A stretch of 64,000 nucleotides of DNA from assembly GCA_044892525.1 (NCBI GenBank), contig CM097885.1, positions 160,270,001 to 160,334,000 on the forward strand, written 5' to 3'. This DNA is from Schmidtea polychroa (taxonomy: Eukaryota). This document shows, piece after piece, positions 31,987 through 64,000 of the stretch; the stretch's first letter is position 1, and the number at the start of each line of letters is the position of its first letter. Made by a program: the position numbers and the translations under genes. The notes beneath the pieces were generated by a model. That model did no database searches. It was not told the origin of the DNA and saw only the letters and a program-made list of their open reading frames with translations.

Positions 31987-32039
<53 letters not shown>

Positions 32040-37850: not shown

Positions 37851-37922
<72 letters not shown>

Positions 37923-38097
37923 ATAACTATTATAATAGTGTCGAAACTTGTGAAATACTCTTACAGCATAGATTTCAGACTTGTGGCACTATTCGTACAC
38001 ACATAAGCCTTCCTCTTTATTTGGATAATGGGAAACTATAAAAGGGGAATCTATGTTCCATCGTCGGCAAAACATTTTATTACACAATCAAAAAGAA

Positions 38098-38142
<45 letters not shown>

Positions 38143-41100: not shown

Positions 41101-44100
41101 AACTTGCTTGGGAAGAGAGGGTATTCCGTTATGACACCTTTGTATAAACCATAATAATTGCGACCTTTATTATAATTAAACTGATTAATTTGCTTCTCGA
41201 CTACTTCTGGAACATAATCTGTTTCAATAACAATTGGTGTTAATTACTTTAATATGATTGAACAGGAACGTCATTGCATCTCATCCACTATTTCTGAACA
41301 TTAAAATTGCGAAGTTCTATCTTTGGTTGCAAATAAATTCAGGTGAATTTCACCGACATTAATATTAATATTTAAAAATTTTTTAATTATAAATAGAAAA
41401 TTTAAATAAATTCTAATAATATTTGTGATCAGAAAATATATTTTGGATGATTGGTATAAAAATGCCATAAAATTTATTGCAATAACCATCTTCCAAACTT
41501 TTCTCATTTGACTTTTATAGTGAGCTCATAAATGAACATCAATACAAATAAGCAACATGTGGCGCATTTTATGCATTATGAATGTGTTAAAAACATTAAT
41601 AATTATGGGAATGCTAATATTTGAAAGGCATGATAATATTTAATTTTTACAAATTTATTTATTAACTAACTAATTACTTGGAGAACCTGATGTTTGATCC
41701 TGCCTAGTCTTGTAAGATCCATCTAGAAAATTGAAAAGTTAAGACAAAAAGTATAGTCTGAAAGTATGCTCACGGAAATAGACCGTGTTATTAATTATAT
41801 TAATCATATTAATAATATTGGATAGAGGCTGCACCTAGTGATGCAAACACTGTCATTTTTACCGGGAAACTCCGGATTTGGAGATCATTATTTGGGCCCA
41901 GATTAACAATACAACTCTTCTGGGTTGGGTCAGTGGGTTAATTCAAATTTACAATTTGGCTTATATTTTCAATACAAGCTAAAAACTAAACATATTATGC
42001 ATGTTCCCACCAAAAACCGAGATCCTAGTCGAGAAAGTCGACACAACAAACAATGTAATCGTCTCTGGGCTGGTAGACTTGTATAAATTAGAATTTTTGG
42101 AAAATAATGTATAATGAATTTTTGAATTTTAATTTTTTTTGATTTACAACGAATTGAATAAATTGTGTAAATGTAGATTTATATGTTTTTATTATCTCCT
42201 CCTTTCCACAACAACGAAATTCTTTTTCTCCGGGTCAACATTTGAACAAAAAATGTATATATATTTTGAATTGAATTTATTAATCTAATTTTATGGAAAT
42301 GAAAAAGAAAAATTTTCTGAAGTCCTATTTGTTACCATTATTGCGAAGAATCTGGATTCTTTTTCTATATAATTTAATATTTTCATATCAAAATGCAAAA
42401 TGTTAAAATTTTTTAAAAAGTTTATTTTTCACTAGAATTTTAATTTCTTTATTTCATCCTTTCCATATGTTTGAAACTGATGGTCGTTTAATAAAATTTT
42501 GATCAGATTTAGTGAAGCATGAACTTTTCCATAGACACAAATGTATTAGATGCATTTCATTAAGACTGATTGTAGTGTGGAGGTAAGTGATGGAGATAAG
42601 ATGATGGTGGGAGGATTCTGGATAAACCAAGCTTAGAAAATACAAATAATGTTGGAGGTAACGATGAGTGTGGCCCAAAGACTGTGAGCGCGATACCTTT
42701 TGAGTATGTATACAAATAATGGATTTCAACGTCACAAAACGTGACGGGCATGGTCTAGTGAGGGATAAGTGCATGAGTATTAATCTATTAAAACATTGAG
42801 ATAAAACAATTATGATCATATTTCTTCCCATTGTGCATTTGACCTGTTTTCTAATAATTCCAACATACAACTTTTTCCTTGAGTATTTTGTTTGTCCTCC
42901 CATATAAGGATATATAAATTAAATAAAGTATATAAGATATAAAATAATTTATAATTTGAATTCTTAAAAGGTTGAATGATAAGTTGACCTGTTTTATCAT
43001 CCCATTGAATTTTCTTGATTCCAGATTGAGAATTTACGATTTTGATCCCCTGAATGCAATTTAACAAATGCTCTAACGGTACTCCTTCTATAGATTCATC
43101 ATCTTAAAGAATTTTTAAAAGGCATGTTAAAAAAAGCCTTACCAGGTGATTCTGTATTTTCTTCGGATTCCCGAATGTTATTCAATGGCTCCGACTCCAA
43201 TTGATCAGGTGCATTTGTAGCAATGGGAATTTTCATAATTTTGATATCATGAAATTCACTTTTGTAACAAGACAAAAAGCTTATTAAATGAACAGATCCT
43301 TTATGAGATTGCAAGATTTTATGAACTTGTTCCTTGAATAATTTCAATGATATCTCGACATTCGGTAGAATAGCTGATTCAAGAGCTGCAATATAATCTT
43401 CTGTTCCTTCTTTGCAATGTTGAACACAAACTAATGACTCCATAGTTTCACCTAACTGAGTACAAACAATAAACTTTTATTAATATATTTAAAAGAAATT
43501 TTAGGATAAGTTAAATTTCTAGCAAAATTCATAAATACCGTTAAAAGAGATGAAGTTATTTTGCTATGTTCCTGGTAAGTAAATGTCCTTTCCTATTTGA
43601 TTTTGCCCTAAAATAATAAAAAAGACTGCTGTTTCCTCAAACTTTGCTTTTGTTATCAGAACAGTGGTATTTTGAAAGTTAGTTATTTCTCGGAATATTC
43701 AGAATGAATTCACTTCTAAATGAACTTGGAGTAATTATTGAAAAATTCGAAAACTTTTCAAAAATAACAGTAGAAATAGCATGATCCTAAGCACAACAAT
43801 TCTGTCAAATAAACCAATTTATGAAGACAAGAGAAAAGGGTTCTCAGTGGAAGCATTTGCCAATATATGTAAATTATGTAATGCAGACAACATCATTCTT
43901 TGGTTGTCATCATTTTCAATTAATAAATATTAGAATGTTAATGAAAGATTTATACCTCATAATTTTTTAAATTAAAAATATTAAATTTACACTAAAATAT
44001 ATACGCGTATATAGAAGTCTGGGTGGATAGGTAGTAGAAATTCCTATTCGAATATCGAAATACCGAATTATTCACCTTTTTTAACTTTTCGATATTCGAC

Positions 44101-47100
44101 AAATGCATTAATTATTCGTTTTTTAGTGTAATATTTTGTAAATTTTGATTTCTAAATAAACATTGTATCCAAGAATACTCATTTTTTTAAATACCAATAA
44201 CGCAGGTAAACCCTTGTAACCCCAGATGTTGGAATGTGATTTTAAAGGGGGATTATTTTTTAAACAAAAAATCAGAATGAGAAATATTAATTTTTGAAGA
44301 AAAACTTACTGTTAATTATTCCTTTATAAACGTTTTATCCAAATAACAGACTATATTAATAAAACATTAAAAGCATTCAATCTGAATACAGTTTTTGATA
44401 GATCTACTAGGTGTTCTTTCACTAATGGAACTGGAGTCAGAGAATTAAGAAAAAATTGTACAACTTTAATAACTGTAGGAGTATAGCAATTTTTATTTAA
44501 AAAATTGGACGATATGGGTACAGAAATTATTAAAAAATTATTGAGGTACTAAAAGGAAAATGACTGAATATTGAAATGAAACATTAATAACGTCATTTAT
44601 TCATCTAAAAACTAGAGATTAGGGTTTCTACCTCGGTAAAAATTTACCGGTAAATAATTAAGCAAAAAATCGTCTAGTTTAAATAAAAAATTATTATAAG
44701 TGTTGGGCTAGAGCCAAAAATTGAGAGCTTGTTTTAATGAGTCGGAAATACATAGCATAGAAACCGCACGAATTAGAATTAAAATCTATGATTATTCACC
44801 AAATAATACAAAGTAAAGTACACAACACATTGAGAATAAATAAAACACGTATAATAAAATGAAGGAATGCAAGAAATTGCAATCACCAACACAATTAAGA
44901 GAGAAATAACGCTTTTGAAAAACCTGCCAACTCGAAAATAAAAGAATAATAAATAAAATAAATAATTGTGTAAAATACTTTTTTACGGATGTCTAACATT
45001 TGAATAATATAAACATTGCAAGCTTTGTGATACCCAGTGCAAATCCAAATAGTAGACTAGTTTCTAGCATTTGGCTCTCATCAGTACTATGCAGGAGACG
45101 CGAAGATTTGATTCAACTCTATTGCATACTTAACTGGAACACTGGAAATCACATCACTTGCAAATTAGCTAATTCACAGAAAAAATATCTGCAAACTTGT
45201 CAACATGGCGTATGAAAAATCATATTCACCCCCGGAGACCAAAATAGTCTATACACAGAAACGTTTACGGATCCACTTGTAAACAGTTCCTGTTTATAGA
45301 CTATATAGAACAACATTTATGAATTGGGAAAAAGGGCGGATCCCTGCGCAAAATTGAATAACATCCAGTAATTAAGATCAACCAATATACCGCGTTAGTC
45401 GAAGGTAACCGGTAATTCAAAAATGTTTTTAATATTTTAGAAGTTTATCTCAAACTTTTATGGTTCATGAAATTTTGTTTTTGAGTAATTTTTGAAGTTT
45501 TTATATCAACTTAAAAATCAATTTTACGATATCTTTTTTATACTATCATTTTTTTCTTAAAATTGTCTAAAAAAAAGTTATTAATATTGCTAATATTGCC
45601 TCATAAATATATATTGTAAGTTTGGATCTATTTTTTAATGAGTTATGTTTGTGTTCCGTATTTATTTTTTTCACCTTTTCAATTTCTATAGTGTAGTGTA
45701 TCTCATTGCACTTGTAAAGAATAACATCAAGTGTTTCTATATTATAACGTTATTTATTTTTCCCCAATATTAAAGGTGTATCTCAGTGGAGTTTGATATG
45801 GTGAAAAATTAAAAAAGTATATTGTAATCAACATACTTCTGATGGATTTGAGGCTTGCGTAATGGAATTTATTGCAGTATTAGTCAAGCTTATTATTTTC
45901 CAATTTTGATTTCCTCCAACATCCTTGATTTCCACAAAGTCTTTCATTCTATAAAAATCAGAAATGCATATGCTTCGATGATATTTCTTTTCATAAAGTT
46001 CCATGAATTTATAGACCGACAAAGAATACCCAGCAACAGATTTCAATAAAGTTGCTACTTCTTGTTTGATGTTAATTGGCGATGGAATTGTATTATTACT
46101 AACGAGATTAACCTGTATTCGTTTGTATCCAATTTTCTTTCGGTGAAATTGAGAAATAGCCAATCGGGCGTCTTCCATGCTGCCCAATCGCACTATTCCA
46201 CAATTCGATCCATCTGGTTGAGTTTGAATCAAAACACTGTGAACTCGTTTAATTGCATTTTGAAATTGATTAAGCAATAATTTCCTCCATTCTTTCGCGC
46301 TAATATTATAATCAAGATTCGTAACAAGCAAGTCGATACTTTGTCCATTAGAAATATTTGATTCCGAGGATTCGTTTGTGATTGGTAAATTTGCCGTTCG
46401 GTGAATTGTTGTCGACTTGTTTCGATTGCTGTTTTCTGAAGAATTTACTGGATTTCCTTTTAATGAAATCGATTTCGATTTATTTCGAGTTGACTTGAAA
46501 GACTTTCGGAAATTTTCTTGAGATTTATACGGAACATTTTTATCTTGATATTGGACAATTCGTTTTTGAATAATTTGATTCATTTCGTTTGATGCGGCTT
46601 TAACCGATTCAATGTTATTCGAGCTGACATTAATGTAATTGCTGTTCAAATAATTCGTTGGCTCAATTGAATTCACCTGGATGTTGTTTAAAACGGCTAT
46701 TTGGTTTGATTGGTAATTCATTTGGGGTAAAAATGAATGAAGGTGGTTCATGTTGACCATTGTTCGATAATAATCAGAGTTATTAATGAAATTAGTATTT
46801 TGCAATCCTATATAGTATCCTTCGGGGCCGGTTTCGTTAGTTGTGTAATTAAATTGATAATTTATTGCATTACTAGCATTAGGAATAGGATTGATATTCG
46901 GGATTGGATATAGTGGAGTATTAATTTGTCCATTGAGATTTTGTGGCACATATGTAGGATAATTCGCATCAAACATATGAAGAAATTGAGGATCATTTGA
47001 TTGTTGGATTGATTGGAAATTATTTGCTATTAAATTCGAGTTTTGAAATGCTTCTTCTTCACTTATGAATGACTGGATTGGCTGTTTTAAATATTCAACA

Positions 47101-47162
47101 GACTTATTAGAGATCTGATTCGACTGACCAATTGGATACATCTGTTGTGTTTGATAATTCAT
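28023..47162 (-). CDS. MARF1: MARF1/Limkain-b1-like RNA-binding protein (RRM + multiple LOTUS/OST-HTH); exons 47162-45837, 43455-43143, 43102-42989, 36764-(gap 36075), 30774-30235, 28314-28023
   Basis: RRM DLLVTNLDY...HRKKIGYKRIQV; GVPLEHLLNCIQGIKI; LOTUS repeats [36 protein letters not shown] and [31 protein letters not shown]. GT-AG junctions are phase-consistent where visible. Confidence 0.92.
28503..29385 (+). mobile_element. TA-flanked MITE (Tc1/mariner-like), copy A
   Basis: TA|CACCAAACACCACTGAGA...TCTCAGTGGTGTTTGGTG|TA. Confidence 0.85.
30096..30160. mobile_element. 65-bp hAT-like TIR remnant
   Basis: CAGTGTTTTCCAAC...GTTGGGAAACACTG; flanking 8-mers differ (ATCTACAA vs ATATAGGC). Confidence 0.45.
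31011..31547 (+). mobile_element. hAT (TAGGGTTGCCA-type) ends / MITE; duplicated left end at 31011 and 31436
   Basis: TAGAGTTGCCACCTCTCCG and TAGGGTTGCCACCTCTCCG; degenerate right end GGTAACAACCCTTA at about 31547. Confidence 0.45.
31987..32037. repeat. (AAT)n microsatellite
   Basis: Direct reading. Confidence 0.95.
32725..32850 (+). repeat. Dispersed repeat, copy 2 (see 18555-18680)
   Basis: Reverse-complement similarity to 18555-18680. Confidence 0.45.
33199..34018 (-). mobile_element. TA-flanked MITE, copy B (inverted relative to copy A); partial copies at 34021-34206, about 34780-35000 and about 45420-45800
   Basis: Same TIRs and TA flanks; internal sequence is the reverse complement of 28503-29385. 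Confidence 0.85.
35928..36074. other. Assembly gap (N run), truncates a MARF1 exon
   Basis: Run of n. Confidence 1.
37142..37852 (-). mobile_element. piggyBac transposase 3' remnant with terminal TTAA|CACATT end
   Basis: DNYYNSVETCEILL...CGTIR, CIYDYKKFMKCVDRAD, IVRRTKKWAK; TTAA at 37138-41. Confidence 0.8.
37673..38138. repeat. About 180-bp near-perfect inverted duplication (37673-37852 / 37921-38100) around (TA)n, followed by a second (TA)n
   Basis: Arms differ at a single position by inspection. Confidence 0.9.
38545..39070 (+). repeat. G-rich minisatellite arrays (14-bp GGAAGGTAGTGGAT and 13-bp TTAAAGGTAGTAG units)
   Basis: Direct reading of tandem units. Confidence 0.9.
45049..45090 (-). 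ncRNA. Minimal type-I hammerhead ribozyme motif (degenerate stem II closing pair)
   Basis: Minus strand ATAGTA-CTGATGA-GAGCCAAATGCTA-GAAAC-TA-GTC-TACTAT: perfect 6-bp stem I, intact CUGAUGA/GAAA core, GUC cleavage triplet and short palindromic stem III. Confidence 0.7.
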
Positions 47163-49758: not shown

Positions 49759-50161
49759 TTTATGACATTGAATTATAAAATTTTTAGTTATATTATAATG
49801 AACTAGAGAGAGAGACGATGAACAAAAAGTAAAATGATTCTAACAAACGAGGCAAGTTTTTGACTATTTGGATTACTAAATGCCCTTTTGGAATGTCAAA
49901 GTGTCAATGGAAAATTTCCGGAGCTTTGCATAATTTATTTTAGGTTTATAGTTATTTTATTTTATTTTTATTTAATTCTTCTGTAAGTATAACTATATTA
50001 GATTGTTACATTTTAATCACCATTGCCGTTTTTGACAATTTCTCAATTAGGTTTGGTTTTCTTTTTGGTCATTGTCGTCCCCATAACGTCGGGGAAAGGA
50101 TATTTAAAAAAACTATACAGCTCACCTCGGGACTATTTAAACTATACGGCTCACCTCGGGA

Positions 50162-50415
50162 CTATTTAATGCCCTATGTAAAAAATATGAAATAAAACGC
50201 AACCGAATCGCTGCTTACAACTCACAAGTAAACGGAAAAATCGAAAGATTACATAGGATACTTAAAAAAAGCATTAGAAACAGAGCAAACGACAGATATT
50301 GGCTCACCGAACTACCGACAATCCTACTGGGTTTAAGGAGCACCCCCAAATCAATCGACAACGATAGCTCTTCTTTTAAAGTTTTCGGCAGACAATCAAA
50401 TCTCCCATCACTCAA
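50162..50415 (+). pseudogene. Gypsy integrase C-terminal core fragment
   Basis: LFNALCKKYEIKRNRIAAYNSQVNGKIERLHRILK...WLTELPTILLGLRSTP...VFG. Confidence 0.8.
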
Positions 50416-50651
50416 AAACAAAACAACAAAAAATACAGAAACAAACAAACAAAAGTAATTTTAAAAAGGAGACCTGACGCAATAGTAAAATTGAAGAAAA
50501 TAAAAAATCGATGCAAAAAGAAATTAGAGAAGAAATTTCGAGAAATAATAATCTTGGAAATAAAAAGGACAAAAATCTGTGAAAACAAAAGAAATTGAAT
50601 TTAAGAATCGTCAAACGTGTTGGGGTTACACCTCGGCTGACCACTCTACCA

Positions 50652-51109
50652 TGTTGACGGGTCTAAGGGTTGATTGTCCATCTCGAATAAAAGGTGCCAC
50701 CGATTTGTCAACCTGGAGTGAAACCCCACATAACTTTCTTCCAACATAGTGCCCGTGAATCACTTCACGTTGGTACTGCACTATGCAGGCGAGACGCCAG
50801 CAAGCAGGTGAGCTTCTGCCTTAAAACTACTCCTTGCTGAGGCCTCGACTTCCCATTCACGACTGCCGATAGAAGGGCTTACGTCCATTTCCTTACACAA
50901 CCGCTTATCGGGATTCGCTGAATGCAAATTGGGAATTTCTCACTAGATCTTGCGGGTTCTCTACTCGACCCACTTAATTAAAGTCTAATTATTCATGAAC
51001 GAAGACGTGTAAGACAACAAGATTTATTAATTTCAATGTTATGACACAAGGATTCAGCTGTACACTTTACTAACGTTTATCGAAAGAAGAGAAAACATCG
51101 TAATCAACA
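50652..51109 (-). mobile_element. Putative LTR-like segment (TGTTGA...TCAACA), relatively GC-rich
   Basis: 6-bp terminal inverted repeat; minus-strand AATAAA followed by a GT-rich tract; no TSD, boundaries uncertain. Confidence 0.35.
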
Positions 51110-51151
51110 TAGATCGGATCCTTGTTCCTCATCCTGACCGCCACTGGGATT

Positions 51152-51904
51152 TTATTGTTTCTCCCATTCAGTGTCGGCGAATAATTCGTCGAGGTTGAAA
51201 AACTCGGAAGCGTTCTCTTCCCACCTTACGCCAGCGGCTGATATGATTCGTGCCGAGGGTCCCGTTGTTAGGTCGATGGACACGTGAGAGTTGCCACCGC
51301 TGGTTGAGTCCTCTATTGCTGGGATGTTTGGCTTTGTAGTAGCGCGCTCGCGCTGTCTCTTCTTGCGCTCTGCACGAGAGAGTTGTTTTCGCTTGGGTTT
51401 GCTTGAAGATGCCACTTGCAGAAGGGTGACTGATACGGATGGACTAGCAGTGGGGGGCTTACTGGTACCCGTGATGACAACATCTGGTCGCTTGGGGGAC
51501 AATTCGGTTTCGACGCAGTCTCGGCACGGTCTCTTGAATGGTGGAGATGGATTCGAGGAAAGGTTGTGATGAGGCGGAAAGATGTCATCGGCCTCTCGGA
51601 TGGGAATCTGCACTATTTTTCGGGTTGTAGCCGCCTGCACGTAAACCTTATGCAGTGCCTCGGATTGTTCTCTGATTAGACTTCTTTGGGCACGGCTCTC
51701 AGATATTAGCGCGTCCCGGCAATGCTCGCTACGATCGAGCTTCCTTTGGATCTCTTTCATCCGAGCGGGACTAAACCATGTCCCTTCCAGCTCGTCTATC
51801 TTCCTCTTGTAACGTCCAATCTGAGTTTGTAGGTCCTTTATCACCGTATTTTTATCCGCGCACGAGAAGCACGGCCGTAATGCTGATTTAGTGGTTGGTA
51901 GCAT
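51152..51904 (-). CDS. Uncharacterised protein (CxxC + coiled coil, Pro/Ser linker, basic NLS-like stretch, acidic W/F-containing tail); probably TE-borne
   Basis: Intact, relatively GC-rich ORF (262 aa from 51940; likely start 51904 after an acceptor-like TAG). Confidence 0.65.
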   Translation of the reverse strand: MLPTTKSALRPCFSCADKNTVIKDLQTQIGRYKRKIDELEGTWFSPARMKEIQRKLDRSEHCRDALISESRAQRSLIREQSEALHKVYVQAATTRKIVQIPIREADDIFPPHHNLSSNPSPPFKRPCRDCVETELSPKRPDVVITGTSKPPTASPSVSVTLLQVASSSKPKRKQLSRAERKKRQRERATTKPNIPAIEDSTSGGNSHVSIDLTTGPSARIISAAGVRWEENASEFFNLDELFADTEWEKQ

Positions 51905-53854
51905 GCTTGCTATAAATAATACTAATGAAATGTAGAACATACGATTTTAGAATAAATTAGATACGACCTACGGCCATTCGTGGATGCTTGACCGACGAAA
52001 AGAAGGAAAACTTATTCTACAATCCGGTTTTACCACGGATCTTATTTGTTGAAACAATTTATTTAACCAAAGGCCATCGGTTTGACGCATGCTATTAACT
52101 TTGACTCTCTATTGATCTAACCGTATACATGAGGGGCGTAATAATTAATAGGGGGTAAATATAATATTGGTGAAACACTATAATAATGCTTTAGTAGAGG
52201 GACATTATAGTATGCGACTACACCTTGCTATAAATCATCTATTTAAATTTATTACAAACAAATTACTATCGCTATTCTCAACATATTTTTTGATTCGAAA
52301 TTTGTTATTGGAAGTGCACTTTTAATTCGGTAGTGAATGTGATTATCTATATTGTCTACCATTTGTCTGAGAATATGTGATGAGTTTACATCAGCCATTA
52401 CTTGAACACCCTAATGGGATATCTCATCGGTCATAACACATGTCCAAATTTACGGATACTACTGTCGACTAGTTGATTACATTATCGACCTATTGTGAAT
52501 GTCACGTGTCGCGACTATTATGTATGCTAGTCTGATATTCTGTGCTCTCACCACATGGATTCGTGTATGGCTACTATCTTATCTCACTCACTTGGTGTAT
52601 GCCATTTTCACGGTGATTTTATCGATCCTGTTGTCGTATGATTTTCTCTGCACAGTGATTTAATTGAGTTATGATTTATGCTACCGCCAGTTCTCATCGC
52701 GGAATTTTACCCTTATCAACTTGTGTGAATGATCACCATCGTTTGGAAATTTATTGGATCTTTTCAGTGATCGTCGAGGGAATAATGCTACCAAATACTG
52801 AAGCATATTACTACTCTCGTCATTCTACTCGGATTTTCCTATTCAGATGTAATGCCGTCTCGATGAAACCTGCCCTTAGCCATTCGAAATTTTCTCTCAG
52901 GTTCAATAATTTGGATATATACAGTGATGCCCTGGCTCTTATTGTAGAAATAAATGTTATTAATTGAATTTGATGATATTTTACCTGTTTATAATTTTTG
53001 AAATAACTAAGTCTATAAAAACTTTCTGATTATAATATTAGAGAGGTTTTCGTAGAATCTCGCATTTTTCAGTTTCGAGTTAGTTAAAGTTTTTAGGATA
53101 CTTTCGTAACCCGACATACAATCTGGACAGGCTAGATGACGTTGGGTCTATGATAACGGAATTTCATACGAAATTAGTTCTACTGAGTCCGGCAAATAGA
53201 CGTTGTCGCAATTAACTTGATGAAACCATGTTTCCAGATGAAGCGTACTATGAGATGTCGTTATTTTTGACGAAGTTCACTAAATCGTTGTCTGGATCTC
53301 ATTTTTCAATAGGGGTAAGATTTACGAAAACGACTTGACGAAAGAAAAAGGAATGCGACGCCCTCAGTCACTGTGTAAATCCTTGAAAATCCCTTCATTC
53401 GTACGACTATCTCTGTGAAAATCATTGTCTGCCAGCGATTCTTTTAACCATGACCCCTTGTGATAATTTAGTCGCATCTTCAGCGATAGGACCCGTGAAG
53501 AAGCCTTCACATTTCGGCCCAATCTAGCTGCGTGATTGAAATACTCCATGTCCACCGGCTGAGCTCCCGAAGGCACCTCATACCATGACATGGAGTATCT
53601 CAACTCCACGTTACTCGTTAAATGAAAATTCATAAAATCTTTAATTCAAATAAAATACGGACATCTGGATAAAAATATTTTATTAATTCTGAAATACTTA
53701 AATAATACAAATTACATCAATACGTTAAAGTTATTAAAATGAAGAATCAAATGAAGAGAGTTAACTAAAATATTTAATCGTTAATATTTAACATTACTAT
53801 TAGCTTTGCAAATACTTAAATAAATCTATAAACAAATGAAATACCCCTCACTAT

Positions 53855-54483
53855 TGTTAGGCTGAGTCAAAATTCAATGTTGTTCGTTCCAAATAGTCCT
53901 AATGGTGGTCCGTTGGATGTCGATTGTTGTGATGAATGGTATTTCGGTCTCTGAACTGGTTTTGAATAGATGTGGAGTTTTCTGAATGACGGTTGCTTGG
54001 CTAGTAGTGTCGATCCTATGAAATGCTCGGGGTTAACAGTAAAAACAGTAAACATTTTTCTTACCTATGAAATGCTCGGGGTTAACAGTAAATTTAATGT
54101 TTTTGGTAGTTGTATATATATCAAATTCTTATTTGTGCGGACCAATCAGAGTTGAGTACCGCTTATTTCTATTAATTTAATATAATTTTCTTGTTTTTAG
54201 GTTGTTTTTTCCTTATTTTCTTTATTTTTAATATGTTTTTCTATTTATTTCCTTAATTTCCTTATTATTTCTTGAATTCCTCTTTATTTATTTGTCAACT
54301 TGTTCTATTTTAATCTTTTCTTAATTTTATTTTTTGTTTTAATTCTTATGTCTTAATTATTATTTTCCTTATATCTTATTCTATTTTATTTCTGATTTTA
54401 TTTATTTTATTTTTATTTTTCTTAATGTTCTACTTCCCTACTTTCTTATTTTTCAACGATTAAATTTTCGACTCAGCCCAACA
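53855..54483 (-). mobile_element. LTR (629 bp), probable 3' LTR of the large cargo-bearing element
   Basis: About 20-bp terminal inverted repeat TGTTAGGCTGAGTCAAAATT / AATTTTCGACTCAGCCCAACA. Minus-strand A-rich U3, ATTGG (CCAAT) box and TATATATA. Flanks are not a TSD, consistent with one LTR of a larger element. Confidence 0.6.
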
Positions 54484-54717: not shown

Positions 54718-55386
54718 TTATGAATTGTTAACCATTGATGCTTCTGCTGGCGGCTGTTGGTTGGTTTGGGTATTGATGTTGAGATAGGTCTGACTATTAG
54801 ATTTCGGCTGGATTGGTTGATTACTCGGGGTTCGAGGTCGGAATGGGGTTGGGTTAAGATTTGTCAGGGGCACTTCTTGAGGATTTTGGTTCGAGGTTAC
54901 TCTTATTGATGTCGAGATTCTACATCTATTTCGAACTTCGTAAATTTTCATGAATATTGGTAGACATAGGAGGAGGGTCTCTGCGATCACCACATATATG
55001 AGATAATGGGTGTCATTGATCTCGGGAGGTGTTTTTGGCTTTTCTACAAGATTTTCAAAATCCTCTTGTTGCATTTGTTGTTCCAACTGGTCGATCTGTT
55101 GGCTTTGTTCGAAGATTTGTTTGTTTATCATTTTACAAATGGGATTCTTTTTACACATTGTTTGGATGTTGTTGATGTGTGATCGGGTTGATTGAATGGT
55201 TTGGATGATATGGGTTTTTACGGTCATCGGGTATGTGCATTGACTGGATTCTTGTTTAGGTTCTTGATTTTGATTTCGGTAATCTCGTACGATTTTCGGT
55301 TGGGCGTTTAATTGTTTGTTCTCCATCAGAATCATCAATACCATCATTGTTATCATCATCTCGCCTCGCATGATACTATTATACAT
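54718..55386 (-). CDS. Element cargo: type-I membrane protein (signal peptide, helical Cys-containing ectodomain, TM, Pro/Asn-rich tail)
   Basis: MMITMMVLMILM..LNAQ leader; TM YLIYVVIAETLLLCLPIFM; intact 222-aa ORF. Confidence 0.75.
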   Translation of the reverse strand: MYNSIMRGEMMITMMVLMILMENKQLNAQPKIVRDYRNQNQEPKQESSQCTYPMTVKTHIIQTIQSTRSHINNIQTMCKKNPICKMINKQIFEQSQQIDQLEQQMQQEDFENLVEKPKTPPEINDTHYLIYVVIAETLLLCLPIFMKIYEVRNRCRISTSIRVTSNQNPQEVPLTNLNPTPFRPRTPSNQPIQPKSNSQTYLNINTQTNQQPPAEASMVNNS

Positions 55387-55426
55387 TCATTATGTTTATT
55401 TACAATTGGTTTTAATGACCCTTAAT

Positions 55427-56179
55427 TTAATGGTTCTGATTTGGATTATTTTCACCGATTCTCATCAAGGTGGACTCTGCTTTAATTACCCTGTGTCTTA
55501 ACTCGGGCAGCATTTCCAATTGTCGGTCTTTTTCACGGGCTTCTCTCTTTAGATGTCTAATTTCTTTTTCCAAGCGTCTAATTTCTTCCCTTTTCTTTTC
55601 AAGGTTTCTTTTTAGCTCGATTTGTAGGAGATCTTGTTCGTTTTCTTGCAGGTAATTTTGTTGTTGATGTTTTCTTTCTATTTCTCTATATTTGCGGACC
55701 CACTTCCTCATTTCTTTACTTTCCCGTTGGTTTTCTTCTAGTTGTCGTTTTAATTTATTTATAGCTGTTTGGCGCTCCTTCGCCTCAGTTTTCCAGTAGT
55801 CTTGGATTACCTCCTTTGCTTTGAAGCTTGCCCTCTCTTTCCATAGCTCTTCCGCTATCTTTTCCCAGTTTTTCCCTCGCTTCCTTTGTTCGTGTAGCCA
55901 TTCATTTTCCTCTTCCGTTTCTCTTTTTATTTCCCCCAACGCTTCGCACTCTTTCTTTAACACCTTTATCATTTTCCGGTCCTCTAGGTATTTGTTTATT
56001 AATCTCCCGTTTTCGTATTTCTCTTCCCGTAACTCGGCCTTTAGCGTTTGTGTTTCTGTTGTTTCTGCCTCAATCTCTCCCTCTTCTACGTCGCTCATAA
56101 TTTCTATCATTTCCTCGATTTTCATATCTATAATATGTACAGTTAATGGTGCGCTATAGTGCGACTTATACGTATACAT
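55427..56179 (-). CDS. Element cargo: coiled-coil protein (likely start 56125)
   Basis: E/K/R-rich heptads over about 220 aa; intact ORF. Confidence 0.75.
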   Translation of the reverse strand: MYTYKSHYSAPLTVHIIDMKIEEMIEIMSDVEEGEIEAETTETQTLKAELREEKYENGRLINKYLEDRKMIKVLKKECEALGEIKRETEEENEWLHEQRKRGKNWEKIAEELWKERASFKAKEVIQDYWKTEAKERQTAINKLKRQLEENQRESKEMRKWVRKYREIERKHQQQNYLQENEQDLLQIELKRNLEKKREEIRRLEKEIRHLKREAREKDRQLEMLPELRHRVIKAESTLMRIGENNPNQNH

Positions 56180-56293: not shown

Positions 56294-57403
56294 TTATACG
56301 AAGGTTTCCTCCTGGCCTACATAACCTTCATCACTATCGACCGCGGAATGTAACTGTATCGCAATAGGGTCGTATGGTAGGTAATATTGGGGAATTTGAG
56401 CTCTCAATTCATTAATTTCGTCTCTTAGAGCTCGAGTGATGTTCAATTCCTCGTCGAGCAGATAGGTGAGATACCTTGTCTCTTCGTCTTTCGCCTCTAT
56501 CTGTTTGTCTAGGGCCTTGATTTTCTCGTCGCCCTTCCATTTTTCAATTTCTATTTCTAAGTTTTTAATATTTTCGGTGTACATTTTCCTTTCGTTTTCT
56601 AATTTTCTGTTTTTTCCCGCTAGGACCATGTTTCTTTGTTCCAGCGATCCTTGTAATCCATTAAGGTCTCTTTTCATTTCTTCTACCTGATTTACTAATT
56701 CCACAACCCGTCCCGCTTGTTGGGTTATCATCTCTTCCATTGCGGCATTCTCGTGCTCTCTTATGTCGCACTTCATTGCCAAATGTCGCTCAAACTCCAT
56801 AGCCTTTGTTTGCCAGGTTTGGCTTCGGGCGGCGACCTTTCTCAACCTTTTCAATTCTTCCTTTATTATTAAATTCTCCTCCCATTTACCTTGTTCGCTT
56901 TCATATCCGAGTCTCATGGGCAATTCTTTCATCTCTTTTTTCATTTCTCTGTTTTGTCTTTTCCATTTTCTCGCTTCTGCCACTAAGTGCATCATTTTCC
57001 TGTCTTCTATTTGTTTTTCCGCTTCGCGCTTGGTGTTCTCATCGGTAAGTCTCTTTCTCGCTTCCTGCACTAGCTGCTTTAAGTAGTGGCTGTGTGCTTC
57101 TTGGCGGGTATTTTCTAGTGACGCCCATTTTGATGCTCTTTTGCATGCTTCTGCTTCCGCTCTTAAGTTGTGTATTAACCATTGGTATTGACTATTCTCA
57201 TCTTCTCTAGTTTCTTCGATGTGATTTCGGGTGAGATTAGTTAGTTGGAACATTACTTTGTTCCATTTTTTGTTATGTTCTCGGAGAATTTGTGTCTTGT
57301 TGACATTGGTTGGGTCTATCACAGTTTCGGTTATTTTCTCTTTTGTCATCTCTAAATCATAGACATCGATTAATCTTTTATTATGAAAAAGGAATTTATT
57401 CAT
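56294..57403 (-). CDS. Element cargo: long coiled-coil (SMC/myosin-tail-like) protein (likely start 57349)
   Basis: 369-aa intact ORF with continuous heptads and an acidic C-terminus. Confidence 0.8.
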   Translation of the reverse strand: MNKFLFHNKRLIDVYDLEMTKEKITETVIDPTNVNKTQILREHNKKWNKVMFQLTNLTRNHIEETREDENSQYQWLIHNLRAEAEACKRASKWASLENTRQEAHSHYLKQLVQEARKRLTDENTKREAEKQIEDRKMMHLVAEARKWKRQNREMKKEMKELPMRLGYESEQGKWEENLIIKEELKRLRKVAARSQTWQTKAMEFERHLAMKCDIREHENAAMEEMITQQAGRVVELVNQVEEMKRDLNGLQGSLEQRNMVLAGKNRKLENERKMYTENIKNLEIEIEKWKGDEKIKALDKQIEAKDEETRYLTYLLDEELNITRALRDEINELRAQIPQYYLPYDPIAIQLHSAVDSDEGYVGQEETFV

Positions 57404-57541
57404 TATTTACTGTTTCTTGGGGAATTTTCGCATCATTTTTGGGTTTTCATATTTAGGGTTTTCATACTATTATTATATAATATTTTATTGGTTATATACA
57501 CCGATATATACAGATTATTATATACAACATTATTCGATTGG

Positions 57542-58930
57542 TTACTCCGTTCTACCCTTCTCCTCTTTCCTCACGGTCATCTTGATATATATGGTATCAT
57601 TTCTCGCCATATCTTCTACTCTTTGTTGTGAGATGAACGTAGGTGCTCCTGTTGCTGATCCTTCTTCGTTGAGGGGCCTCTGGTAAGCTATTTGATTCCC
57701 CGTTGTTTTGAAGCTTTGCTCATGTATACTTTGGTTGTTCATCAGAGTAATATCGATTTTTGCCTGGAACGGCCATTCTAATATTTCGTCGTATTCTCCT
57801 TTACATAACAGAAAGAAAATCGAAAAGTGCGTATCCAATCCGGTTCCGTCCCCGTTGGGATATACCTTCATTTTCATTTTGTACCCATTTTTCCAAGAAT
57901 GGAATGTAGGACTTGTTATTCTTGTCTCTTCTCCGGTTTTTGCTTTTCGTATTCTTTCTTTTACTCCCGTTATTTTCCATATGTAGGGTGCTGTTGGGGT
58001 TATCTCATTTAGATTTATTTCCCGTATTTTCTGATGTAGCTCCTTGGCCTGATTATTACTGATTTCTGTTCGGTTTATTTGCATCTTTATGTTTGCTCGG
58101 GCTTCTTCGAACGCTTCCCTTTCTTCTAGTAGTTCTTTGACTAACACTTTCAACGATGTTATCTCTATCTCCATTTGTTTTACTTTCTCTTCGCTTTCTT
58201 GTAGCGCAGTCGACCACATTTCTGCGTGAGTTGAAGCATTTTCTACTAAATGATGTGGTAACTCACCTCGGTGTAGTAGTTTCTGACAACCCCATCTACC
58301 TAGTACACATGTCATTCTTTTCTTTGCGCATTCCCTTAGATGCTGTGCCACCTTCATTATTTCCCCTTGGTTACATCCGTTTGGGCATTCCCCACTGAAC
58401 TCTGCACATACTCTCTCCTCTTGGACATTGTGATGTTTGAGGGTGAGATTTATCCACGTATCTATTTCTCCACAGTGTTCACATCTTTCCAATCTCTCTT
58501 CACACTGCCTTTGATGCTCTTTTTCTTCGCTTGCTCGAATGGTTTTATGGCACCTTTCACACTGGCCAATTCTGTACATACATTCTCCCATATGTTGTAC
58601 TACCTTCCATATTACTCCTTTCCATTCGCATGGGGCATTTTTGCATCCCAGGTTGGTGTTTAACATGTCTTTCACTGCGGCTTTATCCTCGTTAGTGTCT
58701 TCTAAACTCGATATTAGTGTCTCTTTACACACCGGGCACCTCTGTGGTCTATTCTTTATTGCTTCACTGATACATTCTTTACATACTCTGCATCCACATT
58801 GCGTTTGGTGAGGTTCCTTTAACAACTTTTCACATATTCCGCACATAACATGTTTGTGTATTCTGATCGTTGTAGATTTTCGGACTTGCTCGACAATCTC
58901 TCTGAACTCTTCTCTTTGTCGTTTATCCAT
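57542..58930 (-). CDS. TRAF: Element cargo: full-length TNF receptor-associated factor (RING, about 5 TRAF zinc fingers, coiled coil, MATH/TRAF-C)
   Basis: CGICEKLLKEPHQTQCGCRVCKEC...CPVC; C..C...HxxxC fingers; MATH YIWKI...SPTF...GYKM...YPNGDGTG..THFSIFF.L.KGEYD..L.WPF...G.P.F. Intronless. Confidence 0.95.
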   Translation of the reverse strand: MDKRQREEFREIVEQVRKSTTIRIHKHVMCGICEKLLKEPHQTQCGCRVCKECISEAIKNRPQRCPVCKETLISSLEDTNEDKAAVKDMLNTNLGCKNAPCEWKGVIWKVVQHMGECMYRIGQCERCHKTIRASEEKEHQRQCEERLERCEHCGEIDTWINLTLKHHNVQEERVCAEFSGECPNGCNQGEIMKVAQHLRECAKKRMTCVLGRWGCQKLLHRGELPHHLVENASTHAEMWSTALQESEEKVKQMEIEITSLKVLVKELLEEREAFEEARANIKMQINRTEISNNQAKELHQKIREINLNEITPTAPYIWKITGVKERIRKAKTGEETRITSPTFHSWKNGYKMKMKVYPNGDGTGLDTHFSIFFLLCKGEYDEILEWPFQAKIDITLMNNQSIHEQSFKTTGNQIAYQRPLNEEGSATGAPTFISQQRVEDMARNDTIYIKMTVRKEEKGRTE

Positions 58931-59015
58931 TCTATAATTATATGTACAAATAGTTCTTATCGATACAGATTCGATATTTTATTTACAATTATTTACATTT
59001 TAAGCTAGGTTTGGT

Positions 59016-59399
59016 TTAGGGTTCGGAAGAGTCGGCTTCGTGCCCGCTCTCCTCTCTATTCATTAGCCATTCCGACCAGTCTTCTATTTCTGTCTGTTCT
59101 GCTTCCTCCATCATTCTGTCTATTTCAATTTCCCGTCGACGGCTATATTGGGTTATCCTCTCTATCTCTCTTTGCATTTGTTCGATTTTTACCCTCTGGT
59201 CTTCAATTATCTTCAAATAACTAAATCCTCTGTTCATACTCTCGATCAGGTTTCTGTGCATCGTCAGTCCTTGTTCTTGCAAATTGGACACTAATTGTGC
59301 TAATACGGCACATTGTTGCTTCCATAATTCTTCAGTTACTGTATTGTGGTTCATTTCGTTATTTCCTTGATCCATTCCTAATTTATATACACTTTTCAA
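59016..59399 (-). CDS. Element cargo: small coiled-coil protein (likely start 59375)
   Basis: Intact 127-aa ORF, heptad-rich, acidic W-containing tail. Confidence 0.65.
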   Translation of the reverse strand: MKSVYKLGMDQGNNEMNHNTVTEELWKQQCAVLAQLVSNLQEQGLTMHRNLIESMNRGFSYLKIIEDQRVKIEQMQREIERITQYSRRREIEIDRMMEEAEQTEIEDWSEWLMNREESGHEADSSEP

Positions 59400-59535
59400 C
59401 TCTTATGTAAATTTAATTTTATTTTATGATTCCCGTTATTGTATAATATTGATACCGCGCTTATATAGAGATATAGTACTGTTATATACATAAGATATAC
59501 TTACTTTTTACAATTATATACAGTCATATTCCTTT

Positions 59536-62500
59536 CTATATACGTGAGTTTGGAGGGCGCTGAACGTTCCAGGCCTCCACCCACTGTTCTTGTTTGATAT
59601 CACTTGGTCGTTTCACTCGATGTTGGAAGTTTCTGATTCGGGTCATTTCTAGTTCTCCGCGATGTCGTTTATCTTTAATTATTTTTATTGTTCCCCCCGT
59701 TATGATTAGGAATGCCCCTGTTATTATTATCCCACTGATCCACATCATCTGCTTCACGCTTATACTCTCTGGTTTTTCCTTGTTTGTTAATGTTGATATC
59801 GCTTCTGTACTTTTCTCGTTTCCTCTTTTGCCATTTCCTTTCATCATTTCCCGTATTCTTGCTATTTCCTCGTTCATACCCTCCTTTGCCATCTTTTGTA
59901 TTTTTTCCATCTCTTCCTCCGAAACATAGTTGTCCTGAGCTTCCTCACCAGTTTTCTTGTGCTTTCCTCCTTCGTTCTTTTCGTCGTGGTTTTTTCTTTT
60001 CTTTCCTCTTTTCCCCGGGTATCGTCGGCATTCTCTTTTTGATTCATTCCTCCAGATACAAACCGTGTATTCTTTCGGCGGCTGCTGCTGCGTCACATAT
60101 TGATGGCATCTCTCGCCTGGTCCTAATCTTGAAATACAGACTTTGTGCTCTTTTCTAGGTTGGATCTGCGTTATTACTACTTCACCACCTTTTCCTAGGT
60201 GTACCTCTTTTCCTTTGACGTTCGTTATTCTCTTCCCGTCTCGATTTCGGTATGCTTCTTGTATTCTTACTTCTGTTATTGGTTCTGTGGCCTCATTTAT
60301 CAGTACTAGTTTCTGATACGCTCTAGACATGCATCTTCCTAGTATGCACCTTTCCTTTAAGTCCCATTCTTCCTTTAAATCCCACTGCTGCTCTTGTGCT
60401 TGCTTTTTCTTTTCTTGCTTTAGTTCATCCTCTTTGCTATCTTGATTCTCCGCTTCTTTGGTTTCTTTTATCGTTCTCGTCCCTCCCTGAGCTGTTACTA
60501 ACTCTATCATGGTAAGCATAATTATCATTAATATCATATTTGTCTCTATTTCTTTGTTAGTGAAAGGTAGGCATACCCTCTGTTTTCCATTATTCGATTT
60601 TTCCTCCTCTTTGGTCTTAGTTCCCGGGCTGTTTCCCTCTCTTTTCGTATCCGAATCCTTGTTTTCCGGTTTACCCTCCTCCTGTTCTCTTTTCTCTTTA
60701 TCCTCCTTTCGGCCTTTTCCGTTATTGTCATCGTGTTTATCTCCCCCGCTGTCGTTTAAAATGTCGTCCTCGACATTTATATCGTTCAATAATCTGCGAT
60801 ATGCTGTTAGCACTCTGTTTCTTGCTAATTTTGCTTCGAATTCAAACTCTTTTCTACCCGTTGCAGCATGTCTCTTTCTATTCCATTCTTTAACTAACTC
60901 TCTCAATTGCATACGACGATGTTTCCCAATTCGTTGTTGCTCGTTCTGATTTTGCGTGAATTTTAGGTCTTCTCTATTTAATACTATTAAAATTATTTTA
61001 GGTGTCCCCCCCTTAGTTAGGGTATTCTTTACCATCGCATTTTCTCCGTTTTCGTAGAATTCGTTTACATTTATCGCATATTTATTATTTTGTGGTACTC
61101 TCCAGGTTAATAATAATTTCATTGCTTCTAGATTTTTCCGTACCGCATTCCATTGAAACTGAGATGTGTTTTTGCACATATTTTCGACTTCTTCTTTTGT
61201 CGCATTTTTGCAAATAAATCTGATCATTTCTAAGTTTGGCTGTATGGTTGCCCAGTCCAAGGTGGAATTTCCTTCATTGGACTTTTCGTCTAGTTTCGAT
61301 CCTGATTGATGTAGGATGTGGAGTGTTTTTGGGTGTATTTTCGTTATAGCTGCATACATCATGGCGGTTTCACCTTGTTCATTTTTCGTGTTGGTTTCCT
61401 CGCCCATCTCTCCAAGGATTCTCACGATCGTTATTGCTCTATTTTCTTTCGCCGCTAGTATTGCTTGTTGTAGGGGTGTTCTGGAATCCTTCGTTACCAT
61501 CGTAAATGCTCGAGGCAAGAAGGTTTTGATTTTCCCGATATCTAAATCCGTGGTTTGATCTCTTGCGTATGTGTGTACGGCTTTTATTATTTTGGACAAT
61601 ATTATTTCGTCTGGCAGCTCTAGCATTTCCTCAAAGAACACTTCTTTTGCTTTGCGTATTATTGCCTCTTGATCTATACTCATTGATTTGGTTTCGATGA
61701 CGTTGTTTGTGACCGTTTGGTTCGTTGTTGACTTTGATTCCCTGGATTTCTCATACCTTATTTTCGTTTTCTTTCCGTTTGGATTATTGATTCGTTCCTC
61801 TGCTGTAAGTATTTGGATAATATCCAGGTAATTCTCGCGGATGTTATTCATTGTGTCCATCATATATAACACACTTACCGTTTCCCAATATTTATTTCGT
61901 ACTTGGTTAGTAAATTGGAATAGGGATTTTTCGAATGTGTCGATTCGCTTTTTTGCTAACTGTTCGTCTTTATGATTTGTGAATTTTATCCCTCGTTCTA
62001 GTAATTGATTCGGGATTTCGAATAACTGATGTCCTTTCATAGCTTCTCTCATCAGCGTGTTCTCTCCTCTCGTGAACGCTTCGTTTACGTTGATCCTATA
62101 ATCGTTTCGAATTGGATTTCTCCATGTGATTAATATTCCGGTAATTGTCGTCAGTTTTTCTTTGATCGCTGTTAACAATCCATCATACATGTTTCCGACT
62201 TCCCGATTGTCCTCATATGATAGTAGTTCCATCAATGACGTGAACGCCTCGGTACTTCTCCCTTCGATAGCATGGTGTAGAGCGTTTTTCCGCTCGTGGT
62301 CTTGTGTAGTTATTTTCGATCCGGTATCGAGTAATGCGGTTATAATGTCTTTTGTTTTGCCTCTGTTTGCGGCTATCATTAATGGTGTGTAACCTTGGTT
62401 GTTTGTTTGTTCTGTTGATCGCTTGCAGTCGTGAAATGCTTCTATTGTTTCTAGTATTTGCTCGTTGTTACCTACTTTCATGAGTTTGTGTAATGGTGTG

Positions 62501-64000
62501 TCTCCGTAATGATCTGTTATTGTAAATAATATTGGCCATTGGCTTTTGACTACTCGCAATAATGGGTGTGTCCTTTCTCTATTTGCATAGTTCTCGATCA
62601 TCGTCAATAATCCTCCTAATATTTCGAAATCTAATCGATCTTTTGCCCATCCAGGTATTTTAATTTTTACCTCTTTTACAATCTTTTCCGCTTCTGATGG
62701 TTGGATACCTAATCGTCCAGTGATCGGTTCTGCGGGTTGTTGCATCATGTTCATTCGGTAGGTTTGCGAACGTGTGGTTAATGTACGGCCTTCTGGTTGA
62801 CTAGTGGCTGTTTTTGGAATTGATTTGCATCGTGCCACGTTTACGTATATTGGTCTGGTAAAGGGGTTATTTACCAATTTCACTCTTACATTAGTTTCGC
62901 CTACGAATAAGATCTCATATGGTCCTTTTCCGTTGCGTTGTAACTTTTTTGTGGTTCCTGGAATTAATTCCGGGGTTTCTATCATTACCCAATCACCTGT
63001 TTGGAACGTATGTTGCTTCACGTTTTTCTTTCGATCGTGTAAATCTTTATAACTTTCCTGGTAGAACTTGATATTTAATCCCGCAGTTTCCCAAATTTCT
63101 TGCATTCTTTCCTTGAATTTCGTAACATAATCATCGATCTCCATATACTGCGATATCGGTGGTTGGTATTCCAGGTCCATTGGCATATTACATTCTCTTC
63201 CGTACATTAATTTGAATGGGCTCATTTTCGTTGATGCGTGAATCGACATTCTGTACGCCATAAGACATAGGTTTATATATTCGTCCCAATCTCGTTGGTG
63301 ACGGTCAACGTAGTTTGATAACATTTGTATAAGTGTTCCATTAAATCTTTCCGTCATCCCATTGGTTTGAGGGTGGTATGGAGATGTTCTTAGTTTTGCT
63401 ATTTTGAAGTAATTTGTTACTTCGCTCATTATCTCACTCATAAAATTAGTTCCCTGATCGGTTAAGATTTGTTTTGGTGTTCCATATCGGCAACATATCT
63501 CTTCTACCAAAATTTTTGCGATTGTTTTAGCTTTTTGGTCTGGCATCGCGAATGCTTCTGGAAATTTCGTAAGAAAGTCTGTGATCACTAGAATGTAAAC
63601 GTTTCCTTTATCTGACTCTGGTAGTGGACCAACTACGTCCATGGATATCATTGTCATTGGTTCTATTGGTACTGGCATTGGCGTTAAAGGTGCTTTCCAT
63701 TTCGATCCAGTATTCTTCCTGGTTGCACAAGTTAGACAATTTTTTACCCATTCGGTTACATCTTCAGTTAACGTAGGCCAAAAATATTTCTGTTTCATTC
63801 TTGCTAACGTCTTTTTCGATGACATATGTCCTCCCAATCTCCCATCGTGATATTGCGTTAGTAACTCTTTTCGTCGGTTTTCCGGTATACACATTAATCG
63901 TTTTTCCCCATCCATTATCAGCAACCAATCTTTCTCTATAATATATCGGTGTCGGTGTTTATCCATATGTTCTTTTAATTTTTGGTCTTTCGCATATACC
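59536..64000 (-). CDS. Pol C-terminus: integrase (H2C2 zinc finger, DDE core, GPY motif) fused to two ankyrin blocks and a signal-peptide/ectodomain/TM module; ORF open to the window edge
   Basis: H..GH...CLTC, SMDVVGP, TDQGTNF, YHPQTNGMTER, KGPYEI; ankyrin GDTPLH, GYTPLMIAA, RTPLQQA, GETAMMYAA; hydrophobic MILMIIMLTMIELVTAQ and WISGIIITGAFLIITGGTI; no stops over 1476+ codons. Confidence 0.93.
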   Translation of the reverse strand, partial: VYAKDQKLKEHMDKHRHRYIIEKDWLLIMDGEKRLMCIPENRRKELLTQYHDGRLGGHMSSKKTLARMKQKYFWPTLTEDVTEWVKNCLTCATRKNTGSKWKAPLTPMPVPIEPMTMISMDVVGPLPESDKGNVYILVITDFLTKFPEAFAMPDQKAKTIAKILVEEICCRYGTPKQILTDQGTNFMSEIMSEVTNYFKIAKLRTSPYHPQTNGMTERFNGTLIQMLSNYVDRHQRDWDEYINLCLMAYRMSIHASTKMSPFKLMYGRECNMPMDLEYQPPISQYMEIDDYVTKFKERMQEIWETAGLNIKFYQESYKDLHDRKKNVKQHTFQTGDWVMIETPELIPGTTKKLQRNGKGPYEILFVGETNVRVKLVNNPFTRPIYVNVARCKSIPKTATSQPEGRTLTTRSQTYRMNMMQQPAEPITGRLGIQPSEAEKIVKEVKIKIPGWAKDRLDFEILGGLLTMIENYANRERTHPLLRVVKSQWPILFTITDHYGDTPLHKLMKVGNNEQILETIEAFHDCKRSTEQTNNQGYTPLMIAANRGKTKDIITALLDTGSKITTQDHERKNALHHAIEGRSTEAFTSLMELLSYEDNREVGNMYDGLLTAIKEKLTTITGILITWRNPIRNDYRINVNEAFTRGENTLMREAMKGHQLFEIPNQLLERGIKFTNHKDEQLAKKRIDTFEKSLFQFTNQVRNKYWETVSVLYMMDTMNNIRENYLDIIQILTAEERINNPNGKKTKIRYEKSRESKSTTNQTVTNNVIETKSMSIDQEAIIRKAKEVFFEEMLELPDEIILSKIIKAVHTYARDQTTDLDIGKIKTFLPRAFTMVTKDSRTPLQQAILAAKENRAITIVRILGEMGEETNTKNEQGETAMMYAAITKIHPKTLHILHQSGSKLDEKSNEGNSTLDWATIQPNLEMIRFICKNATKEEVENMCKNTSQFQWNAVRKNLEAMKLLLTWRVPQNNKYAINVNEFYENGENAMVKNTLTKGGTPKIILIVLNREDLKFTQNQNEQQRIGKHRRMQLRELVKEWNRKRHAATGRKEFEFEAKLARNRVLTAYRRLLNDINVEDDILNDSGGDKHDDNNGKGRKEDKEKREQEEGKPENKDSDTKREGNSPGTKTKEEEKSNNGKQRVCLPFTNKEIETNMILMIIMLTMIELVTAQGGTRTIKETKEAENQDSKEDELKQEKKKQAQEQQWDLKEEWDLKERCILGRCMSRAYQKLVLINEATEPITEVRIQEAYRNRDGKRITNVKGKEVHLGKGGEVVITQIQPRKEHKVCISRLGPGERCHQYVTQQQPPKEYTVCIWRNESKRECRRYPGKRGKKRKNHDEKNEGGKHKKTGEEAQDNYVSEEEMEKIQKMAKEGMNEEIARIREMMKGNGKRGNEKSTEAISTLTNKEKPESISVKQMMWISGIIITGAFLIITGGTIKIIKDKRHRGELEMTRIRNFQHRVKRPSDIKQEQWVEAWNVQRPPNSRI

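Follow-up and report, generated by a model that had tools for sequence, protein, structure and literature searches.

A full-length TRAF gene carried by a Burro-type retrotransposon of Schmidtea polychroa

The element and its genes

The window, a stretch of 64,000 nt from Schmidtea polychroa (assembly GCA_044892525.1, contig CM097885.1, positions 160,270,001 to 160,334,000), contains at 57542..58930 on the minus strand a full-length TRAF2/3/5-type ORF of 462 aa without intron, recognized from the ORF list, Pfam and fold match. Reading the window together with neighbouring genome stretches, we found that this ORF lies inside an LTR element of 30,018 bp; the proposal of the initial annotation that the TRAF is borne by a retroelement was thus confirmed. 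The element has two identical 3,866-bp LTRs (TG...CA), the 3′ LTR at 50618..54483 (minus strand) and the 5′ LTR at G000:C1:160346770-160350635, and a 4-bp target-site duplication, AACG, at 50614..50617 with a second copy just after the far LTR. Identical LTRs flanked by a target duplication indicate that the insertion is very young.

The polyprotein, 4,617 aa long, has the order Gag-Env-PR-RT-RH-IN-Ank. Its 3′ part (integrase, ankyrin repeats and tail) occupies 59536..64000 on the minus strand, with the start outside the window at G000:C1:160343389; Pfam matches were Retrotrans_gag, zf-CCHC, Monjiviricetes_fusion (E 1e-70), RVP, RVT_1, RNaseH, rve and Ank. Five ORFs follow downstream of the polyprotein (119, 462, 369, 250 and 222 aa), all on the minus strand. 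Apart from the TRAF these are a 119-aa ORF (59016..59375) and two coiled-coil ORFs of 369 aa (56294..57403) and 250 aa (55427..56179), each with a homologue in a second element family (family B, see below), and a 222-aa ORF with hydrophobic stretches taken from the ORF list (54718..55386). Upstream, on the same strand, a 161-aa ORF with an IAP-like RING at its end (L012:5942-6427) also has a homologue in family B. The ORF list gives one more ORF, of 262 aa, within the LTR (51152..51940, minus strand); it has a signal-peptide-like start and is without a Pfam family above cut-off. A 74-bp tandem repeat array is situated in the element's 5′ internal region (L012:4703-5363).

Judged by its layout against the description in PMC6431247, the TRAF's element is a young Burro-type gypsy LTR retrotransposon. 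It has the length of ∼30 kb with long LTRs and a target-site duplication, the single ORF in the range of 4,500-5,100 aa in which Gag is followed by Env, then by PR-RT-RH-IN and ankyrins, and MATH_TRAF_C cargo, here in an accessory ORF. The combination characteristic of Burro1 proper, a MATH domain inside ORF1 plus a BIR gene, was not seen in the TRAF's element and is present in family B. A search for the Ubl segment in the polyprotein gave a weak ubiquitin match (E 0.074); for the BCL2-like segment the sequence search of the polyprotein gave no match, and fold matches to Bcl-xL/Mcl-1 were weak (E 0.27-0.6) and came from a poor model (pLDDT 49).

Several other features were seen around the element. 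A host MARF1/Limkain-like gene with LOTUS domains (window 30214-47162, minus strand) ends ∼3.5 kb away from the 3′ LTR. A different gypsy element has left integrase remnants next to the TRAF's element (window 50148-50617 and L013), and a related piece in inverted orientation lies on the far side. Broken pieces of a PolB2-type DNA polymerase, Polinton-like, are located at window 13699-15429 (minus strand; Pfam E 1e-12).

Domain architecture and base composition of the TRAF

All parts of a TRAF2/3/5-type protein are present. The RING (58727..58843; aa 29-68; Pfam E 9e-5) has eight Cys ligands, C30, C33, C45, C47, C50, C53, C65 and C68. It is followed by five TRAF-type zinc fingers (58226..58645; aa 96-235, from alignment and model), a TRAF-N coiled coil (58013..58225; aa 236-306, with a model helix at 232-306) and a MATH/TRAF-C domain (57566..57994; aa 313-455; Pfam E 2e-27, with sequence and fold comparison), all on the minus strand. 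The AlphaFold2 model (mean pLDDT 91.6) places the zinc fingers and a long helix between RING and MATH, and its best fold matches are TRAF3 and TRAF2. By sequence, the MATH domain is nearest to TRAF3/2/1 (E ∼1e-27), ahead of TRAF4 (1e-19) and TRAF6 (1e-10). An insertion in zinc finger 3 is common to the element TRAF and planarian host TRAFs. We checked 27 metal-ligand positions, and all were invariant in 50 of 50 copies chosen by protein score.

The complete intronless architecture described in the initial annotation was therefore borne out. The absence of introns is not diagnostic of element origin, since host TRAFs at L015-L018, L020 and L022 are intronless too. The annotation had also pointed to a purine and Lys-Glu bias in common with the other element ORFs. 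The purine part of this observation holds, with a fraction of 0.65 in the TRAF, 0.63 in the polyprotein and 0.51-0.55 in host TRAFs (n=5); the Lys-Glu part is only slight (0.22 versus 0.15-0.20).

The RING cysteine

The element RING reads CGCRVC, as had been noted initially. Residue C47 (58790-58792) stands at the site of His in most animal TRAFs, so that the protein departs from a C3HC4 RING with His as fourth ligand. The initial annotation contrasted this with CGHRFC in host TRAFs; this contrast was not upheld. We read 40 host loci (a few overlap, and one RING is present twice), and 32 of their 33 RINGs carry Cys at the His position, the single His belonging to the TRAF4-like L059. A further His RING in L204 is unrelated and lies on the opposite strand. 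TRAFs of Dendrocoelum have Cys at this position likewise. An element-specific His-to-Cys variant is rejected by the host and Dendrocoelum RINGs; judged from these sequences, Cys is old in the TRAFs of planarians, and the element received it by inheritance.

Among 150 representatives scanned for the RING pattern, 69 had His, 14 had Cys and 67 gave no pattern match. Two crinoid TRAF3-like proteins have Cys at the same RING position, indicating that the His-to-Cys change arose more than once. Zinc is commonly bound by Cys, so that the element RING should keep its fold, and with its inherited Cys it would still bind zinc.

Copy number and selection

A DNA search of the genome with the TRAF gave 363 candidates, with 40/40 scored at 99-100%. 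Among the best 92 protein matches to the element TRAF, 91 are without a stop. We also chose 30 copies by upstream DNA, so that the choice does not rest on the TRAF itself; the gene was present in all 30 and intact in 26.

Variants found in at least two haplotypes comprised 62 non-synonymous and 102 synonymous changes (ratio 0.15), while singleton variants comprised 68 non-synonymous and 43 synonymous changes plus two stops (ratio 0.39). Pairwise ratios for four intact diverged copies were 0.10-0.13 with dS up to 0.82; comparisons to diverged subfamily copies gave dN 0.068-0.084, dS 0.69-0.82 and a ratio of 0.10. For the two most distant copies the domain ratios were 0.06-0.09 (RING), 0.09 (zinc fingers), 0.12-0.14 (coiled coil) and 0.07-0.10 (MATH). 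All these values are simple counts without transition correction, which lowers the ratio somewhat, not to the observed level. The element's RT and integrase have tighter ratios (near 0) and its ankyrin tail is similar to the TRAF (0.14), as estimated from 20 copies taken by protein score, with slight inflation by local misalignment in six of the 20.

By these counts, the element TRAF is under purifying selection with dN/dS of 0.10-0.15 for the gene as a whole, and all four domains are constrained. Such selection tells that the protein matters to the element; it says nothing on what the protein does. The initial annotation had suggested that the TRAF is maintained in the element, a view with which a dN/dS of about 1, or a single-copy retrocopy nearly identical to a host gene, would be at odds. 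What we observed was 0.10-0.15 across multiple copies, RING included, 363 candidates, and a best host match of 31% identity. A neutral retrocopy, a passenger beside or inside the element, is refuted by this dN/dS, held over dS up to 0.8, and finds no close host gene as its source; we give it next to no probability.

A second element family and the origin of the TRAF

Family B, Burro1-like, is represented by L049-L052 (G000:C1:96.63-96.67 Mb) and L045-L048. Its elements have a MATH domain in the polyprotein, a 474-aa Cys-RING TRAF and an adjoining BIR-RING IAP. The family B TRAF gave 392 candidates, was intact in 24 of 30 copies and showed a ratio of 0.14. It occupies the same downstream slot, in the same gene order, as the TRAF of the element in the window (family A). 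The TRAFs of the two families are 29% identical; their pol regions are 73% identical. A BIR was found beside the TRAF in 30/30 family B loci versus 0/38 family A loci; hence the family A TRAF is selected without an adjoining IAP.

In a tree of 45 rows, which took 31 of the 150 representatives, the TRAFs of families A and B are sisters (98/92) inside a clade with planarian host Cys-RING TRAFs (99/99), apart from other animals. A mixture-model tree, with 11 rows left out, kept the clade with planarian host TRAFs (99) and placed the element pair in a three-way group with P0092 (90). The two element sequences are on long branches and are of unusual composition. On MATH alone, in a tree also without 11 rows, the grouping with planarian host TRAFs was not settled. 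We looked for a close host donor and found none: the nearest host gene is 31% identical at best, and P0092, the nearest tree row, has no close relative in the genome (33% at best). A word-based homologue search for the element TRAF returned nothing at E 1e-10.

The shared gene order and the sisterhood of the TRAFs point to a single capture before families A and B split, and we infer that it was made from a host gene. The old capture proposed initially is supported by the 31% best host match and by the sister TRAF in a second family with 73% identical pol. The phylogenetic check that had been suggested thus placed the element TRAF with planarian Cys-RING TRAFs and without a near-identical host orthologue; it did not fix donor or direction. 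AU tests rejected neither a topology that unites all host genes and leaves the elements outside (p 0.216) nor a topology in which the elements group with the tandem-type gene L056 (p 0.31), so that donor and direction of transfer are not fixed by the tree. Both topologies leave room for a reverse or two-way flow, in which the intronless host TRAFs and the planarian expansion would descend from element TRAFs, and several host TRAFs are indeed without introns. However, in base make-up the host genes are host-like, and they have orthologues in Dendrocoelum and Dugesia; the tandem host family has GT-AG introns and its own clade (100/99). We regard such a flow as very improbable.

Apparent size of the TRAF family

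The initial annotation warned that such elements could inflate the apparent TRAF family size. Element candidates total ∼1,050 (363 + 392 + 295) versus 1,551 MATH candidates, about two-thirds, a crude share as the searches compared are unlike. The elements can thus inflate the TRAF/MATH counts of the genome; that inflation accounts for the whole planarian TRAF expansion is, however, less likely. By a hand count, ∼87 of the 150 rows listed are host-type loci, mostly clustered on C2, and the clustered host family has GT-AG introns in three of three loci checked and makes up a separate clade in the MATH tree (100/99). Large host TRAF clusters with Cys RING and a short zinc-finger region are situated at G000:C2 ∼1-5 Mb and 105-124 Mb (L021-L044); the C2 cluster has introns in the coiled coil, and some loci have two MATH domains (L205).

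For S. mediterranea 121 MATH domains were reported (PMC6109357). In a transcriptome, element copies that are nearly identical would be merged, and so these 121 domains are likely to reflect mostly real host expansion. Counts of planarian TRAFs, as well as RNAi experiments, must separate hundreds of near-identical element copies from this expansion.

Spacers between the downstream ORFs

The downstream ORFs are separated by AT-rich spacers of 40-160 bp. The spacer before the TRAF (58931..59015, minus strand, as are the others) contains TGTAAATA twice and AATAAA, and ends with TAGA just before the ATG; the one after the TRAF (57404..57541) contains TGTATATA three times, starting 16 nt past the stop, and then AATAAA. 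A TGTAHATA motif occurs 14 nt past the polyprotein stop (59376..59535) and also in the spacer between the 250-aa and 222-aa ORFs (55387..55426). Considering five spacers of family A and six of family B, we observed TGTAHATA no more than 30 nt past the upstream stop (at 14-23 nt) in 9 of the 11. It is often doubled and mostly followed by AATAAA, and several spacers end with AG near the ATG. In 2,000 dinucleotide shuffles the number of spacers with the motif was 0.34 on average and 3 at maximum versus 9 observed, a generous test as the motif was chosen post hoc and the spacers of the two families are homologous. Ten of the 13 sense-strand occurrences in the 30-kb element fall in the downstream spacers, the motif is kept in diverged copies, and it was found at 0 of 7 host TRAF 3′ ends.

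In sequence the motif is similar to both the Pumilio element and the poly(A) element UGUA. Its position after the stops of accessory ORFs hints at operon-like, ORF-by-ORF processing, which we offer as a working hypothesis. One could speculate further that UGUAHAUA and AAUAAA cut the transcript of the 3′ cargo into single mRNAs, with a trans-spliced leader or an LTR leader, and that the TRAF and the IAP of the sister family, acting in trans, would make a mobile stem-cell survival module; taken as a whole, this scenario seems to us quite unlikely. The literature listing that we searched gave no description of a spacer UGUAHAUA motif in Burro elements. The motif offers a direct handle on the retrotransposon's expression of five or six downstream genes.

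What the element TRAF may do

We propose, with a probability of roughly 0.55, that the element TRAF is a selected accessory gene, likely a trimeric signalling adaptor promoting the survival of cells with an active element. Trimers would form through the coiled coil and MATH, as they do in other TRAFs, and the altered MATH groove would bind partners other than those of host TRAF2-like proteins. For the RING and zinc fingers we envisage a role as scaffold or partner-dependent ligase, as in TRAF2/3/5. The output would feed TAK1/p38/JNK and cell-death pathways, and the TRAF would act alongside other element cargo: a putative BCL2-like segment, ankyrin and RING, plus the IAP in family B.

Roles of MATH groove residues were assigned from TRAF2. 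The groove segment of the element TRAF (TTGNQIAY...GSATG) is partly changed compared with TRAF2 and host genes; PD-x-x-S...NIASG is retained in host TRAF2-like genes and in the polyprotein MATH of family B. In TRAF6, L74H is a ligase-dead mutation (PMC5632801). The position of Leu74 is Glu in the element TRAF and non-Leu in all host RINGs read; with no Leu there, the element TRAF is unlikely to be a stand-alone Ubc13 ligase.

These features bear on the suggestion of the initial annotation that the TRAF may be a decoy. A dominant-negative decoy would either trimerise together with host TRAFs or sit on receptor tails, blunting innate immunity against the element; the groove residues unlike those of host TRAF2-like genes and family B polyprotein MATH, and the missing Leu, are in agreement with it, and planarian TRAFs have been tied to RIG-I/TAK1/p38 immune responses (PMC7958881). 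Still, the host RINGs are without that Leu too, and constraint on the RING and zinc fingers equals that on MATH, beyond what a decoy needs. The notion of a pure decoy is weakened by this constraint, and we hold the decoy role to be doubtful; with all TRAF domains constrained, a working adaptor fits better than a stripped decoy.

It could also be that the changed groove picks a new substrate, a silencing or restriction factor, which the RING or a recruited IAP tags for removal. The fully constrained RING, the family B IAP directly after the TRAF in 30/30 loci and the further upstream RING ORF in both families are consistent with such a re-targeted ligase or adaptor. Subfamily amino-acid changes cluster at aa 395-421, near the groove, as the idea would have it; yet synonymous changes are concentrated there as well (12 synonymous, 9 non-synonymous), which fits recombination, and positive selection at the groove was not shown. 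The copies fall into two MATH haplotypes at aa 395-447, which differ by clusters of both synonymous and non-synonymous changes, a pattern that suggests recombination between subfamilies. Given also that family A has no BIR beside the TRAF (0/38 loci), we consider re-targeting unlikely.

For the survival-promoting adaptor that we favour, an anti-apoptotic or immune role, as raised initially, would be plausible. Cell death rises upon knockdown of host TRAF2-like genes (PMC7586133, in S. mediterranea; PMC8807557), and the BIR-RING gene of Burro1 was reported, second-hand in PMC13465017, to protect stem cells against apoptosis. BURRO1 RNAi is reported not to have rescued smedwi-2 knockdown animals (PMC8532177); this experiment addressed a different question, yet it gives no sign of a strong effect.

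Comparison with known systems

Burro1-4/GYPSM1 are giant gypsy-like planarian elements (PMC6431247, citing Jurka 2007 and Grohme 2018), described there as having a huge ORF, Gag-Ubl-BCL2-like-Env-PR-RT-RH-IN-ankyrin, tandem repeats and accessory ORFs. Cargo in print includes MATH_TRAF_C, BIR, BCL2-like, ankyrin and RING, with MATH_TRAF_C in ORF1 in S. mediterranea and in an upstream accessory ORF in D. tigrina (PMC6431247). The element in the window is similar in its length of ∼30 kb, long LTRs, tandem repeats, accessory ORFs and TRAF/MATH and RING cargo. It differs in that family A has neither the polyprotein MATH nor the BIR gene and carries its TRAF downstream of pol, as a separate gene with the complete RING-ZnF-CC-MATH order. 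Family B is alike in gene order, Cys-RING TRAF slot, homologous flanking ORFs and spacer motif; it adds the polyprotein MATH and a BIR-RING IAP after a TRAF that is only 29% identical.

Planarian TRAF2-like host genes (D. japonica TRAF2-like A, P0019; Dendrocoelum TRAF-2/4/5, P0009, P0011 and P0024; Smed-TRAF-2A/B) have the same domain order, Cys where a RING is present, the finger-3 insertion, and are often intronless. In contrast to the element TRAF, to which they are ∼30% identical, these genes have few copies each and host base make-up, and they keep the PD-x-x-S and NIASG groove motifs lost in the element. Vertebrate TRAF2/3/5 are similar in fold and MATH sequence; they have His as fourth RING ligand and many introns.

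Elements of the Burro kind with TRAF/MATH cargo have already been described (PMC6431247), and the whole selected TRAF is a fuller variant of known cargo. In the literature searched, with the two main Burro papers outside reach, we found no description of a full-length RING-TRAF accessory gene under selection. Where a MATH domain was known as Burro cargo, there is now an entire TRAF, under selection and common to two families. The closest counterpart is B-IAP of Burro1 (Lee et al. 2026 Dev Cell, as cited in PMC13465017), a tested host-derived survival gene on Burro, whereas a survival role of the element TRAF is a proposal and family A is without an IAP. Beside B-IAP, the element TRAF makes a second testable candidate for Burro action on host cell survival.
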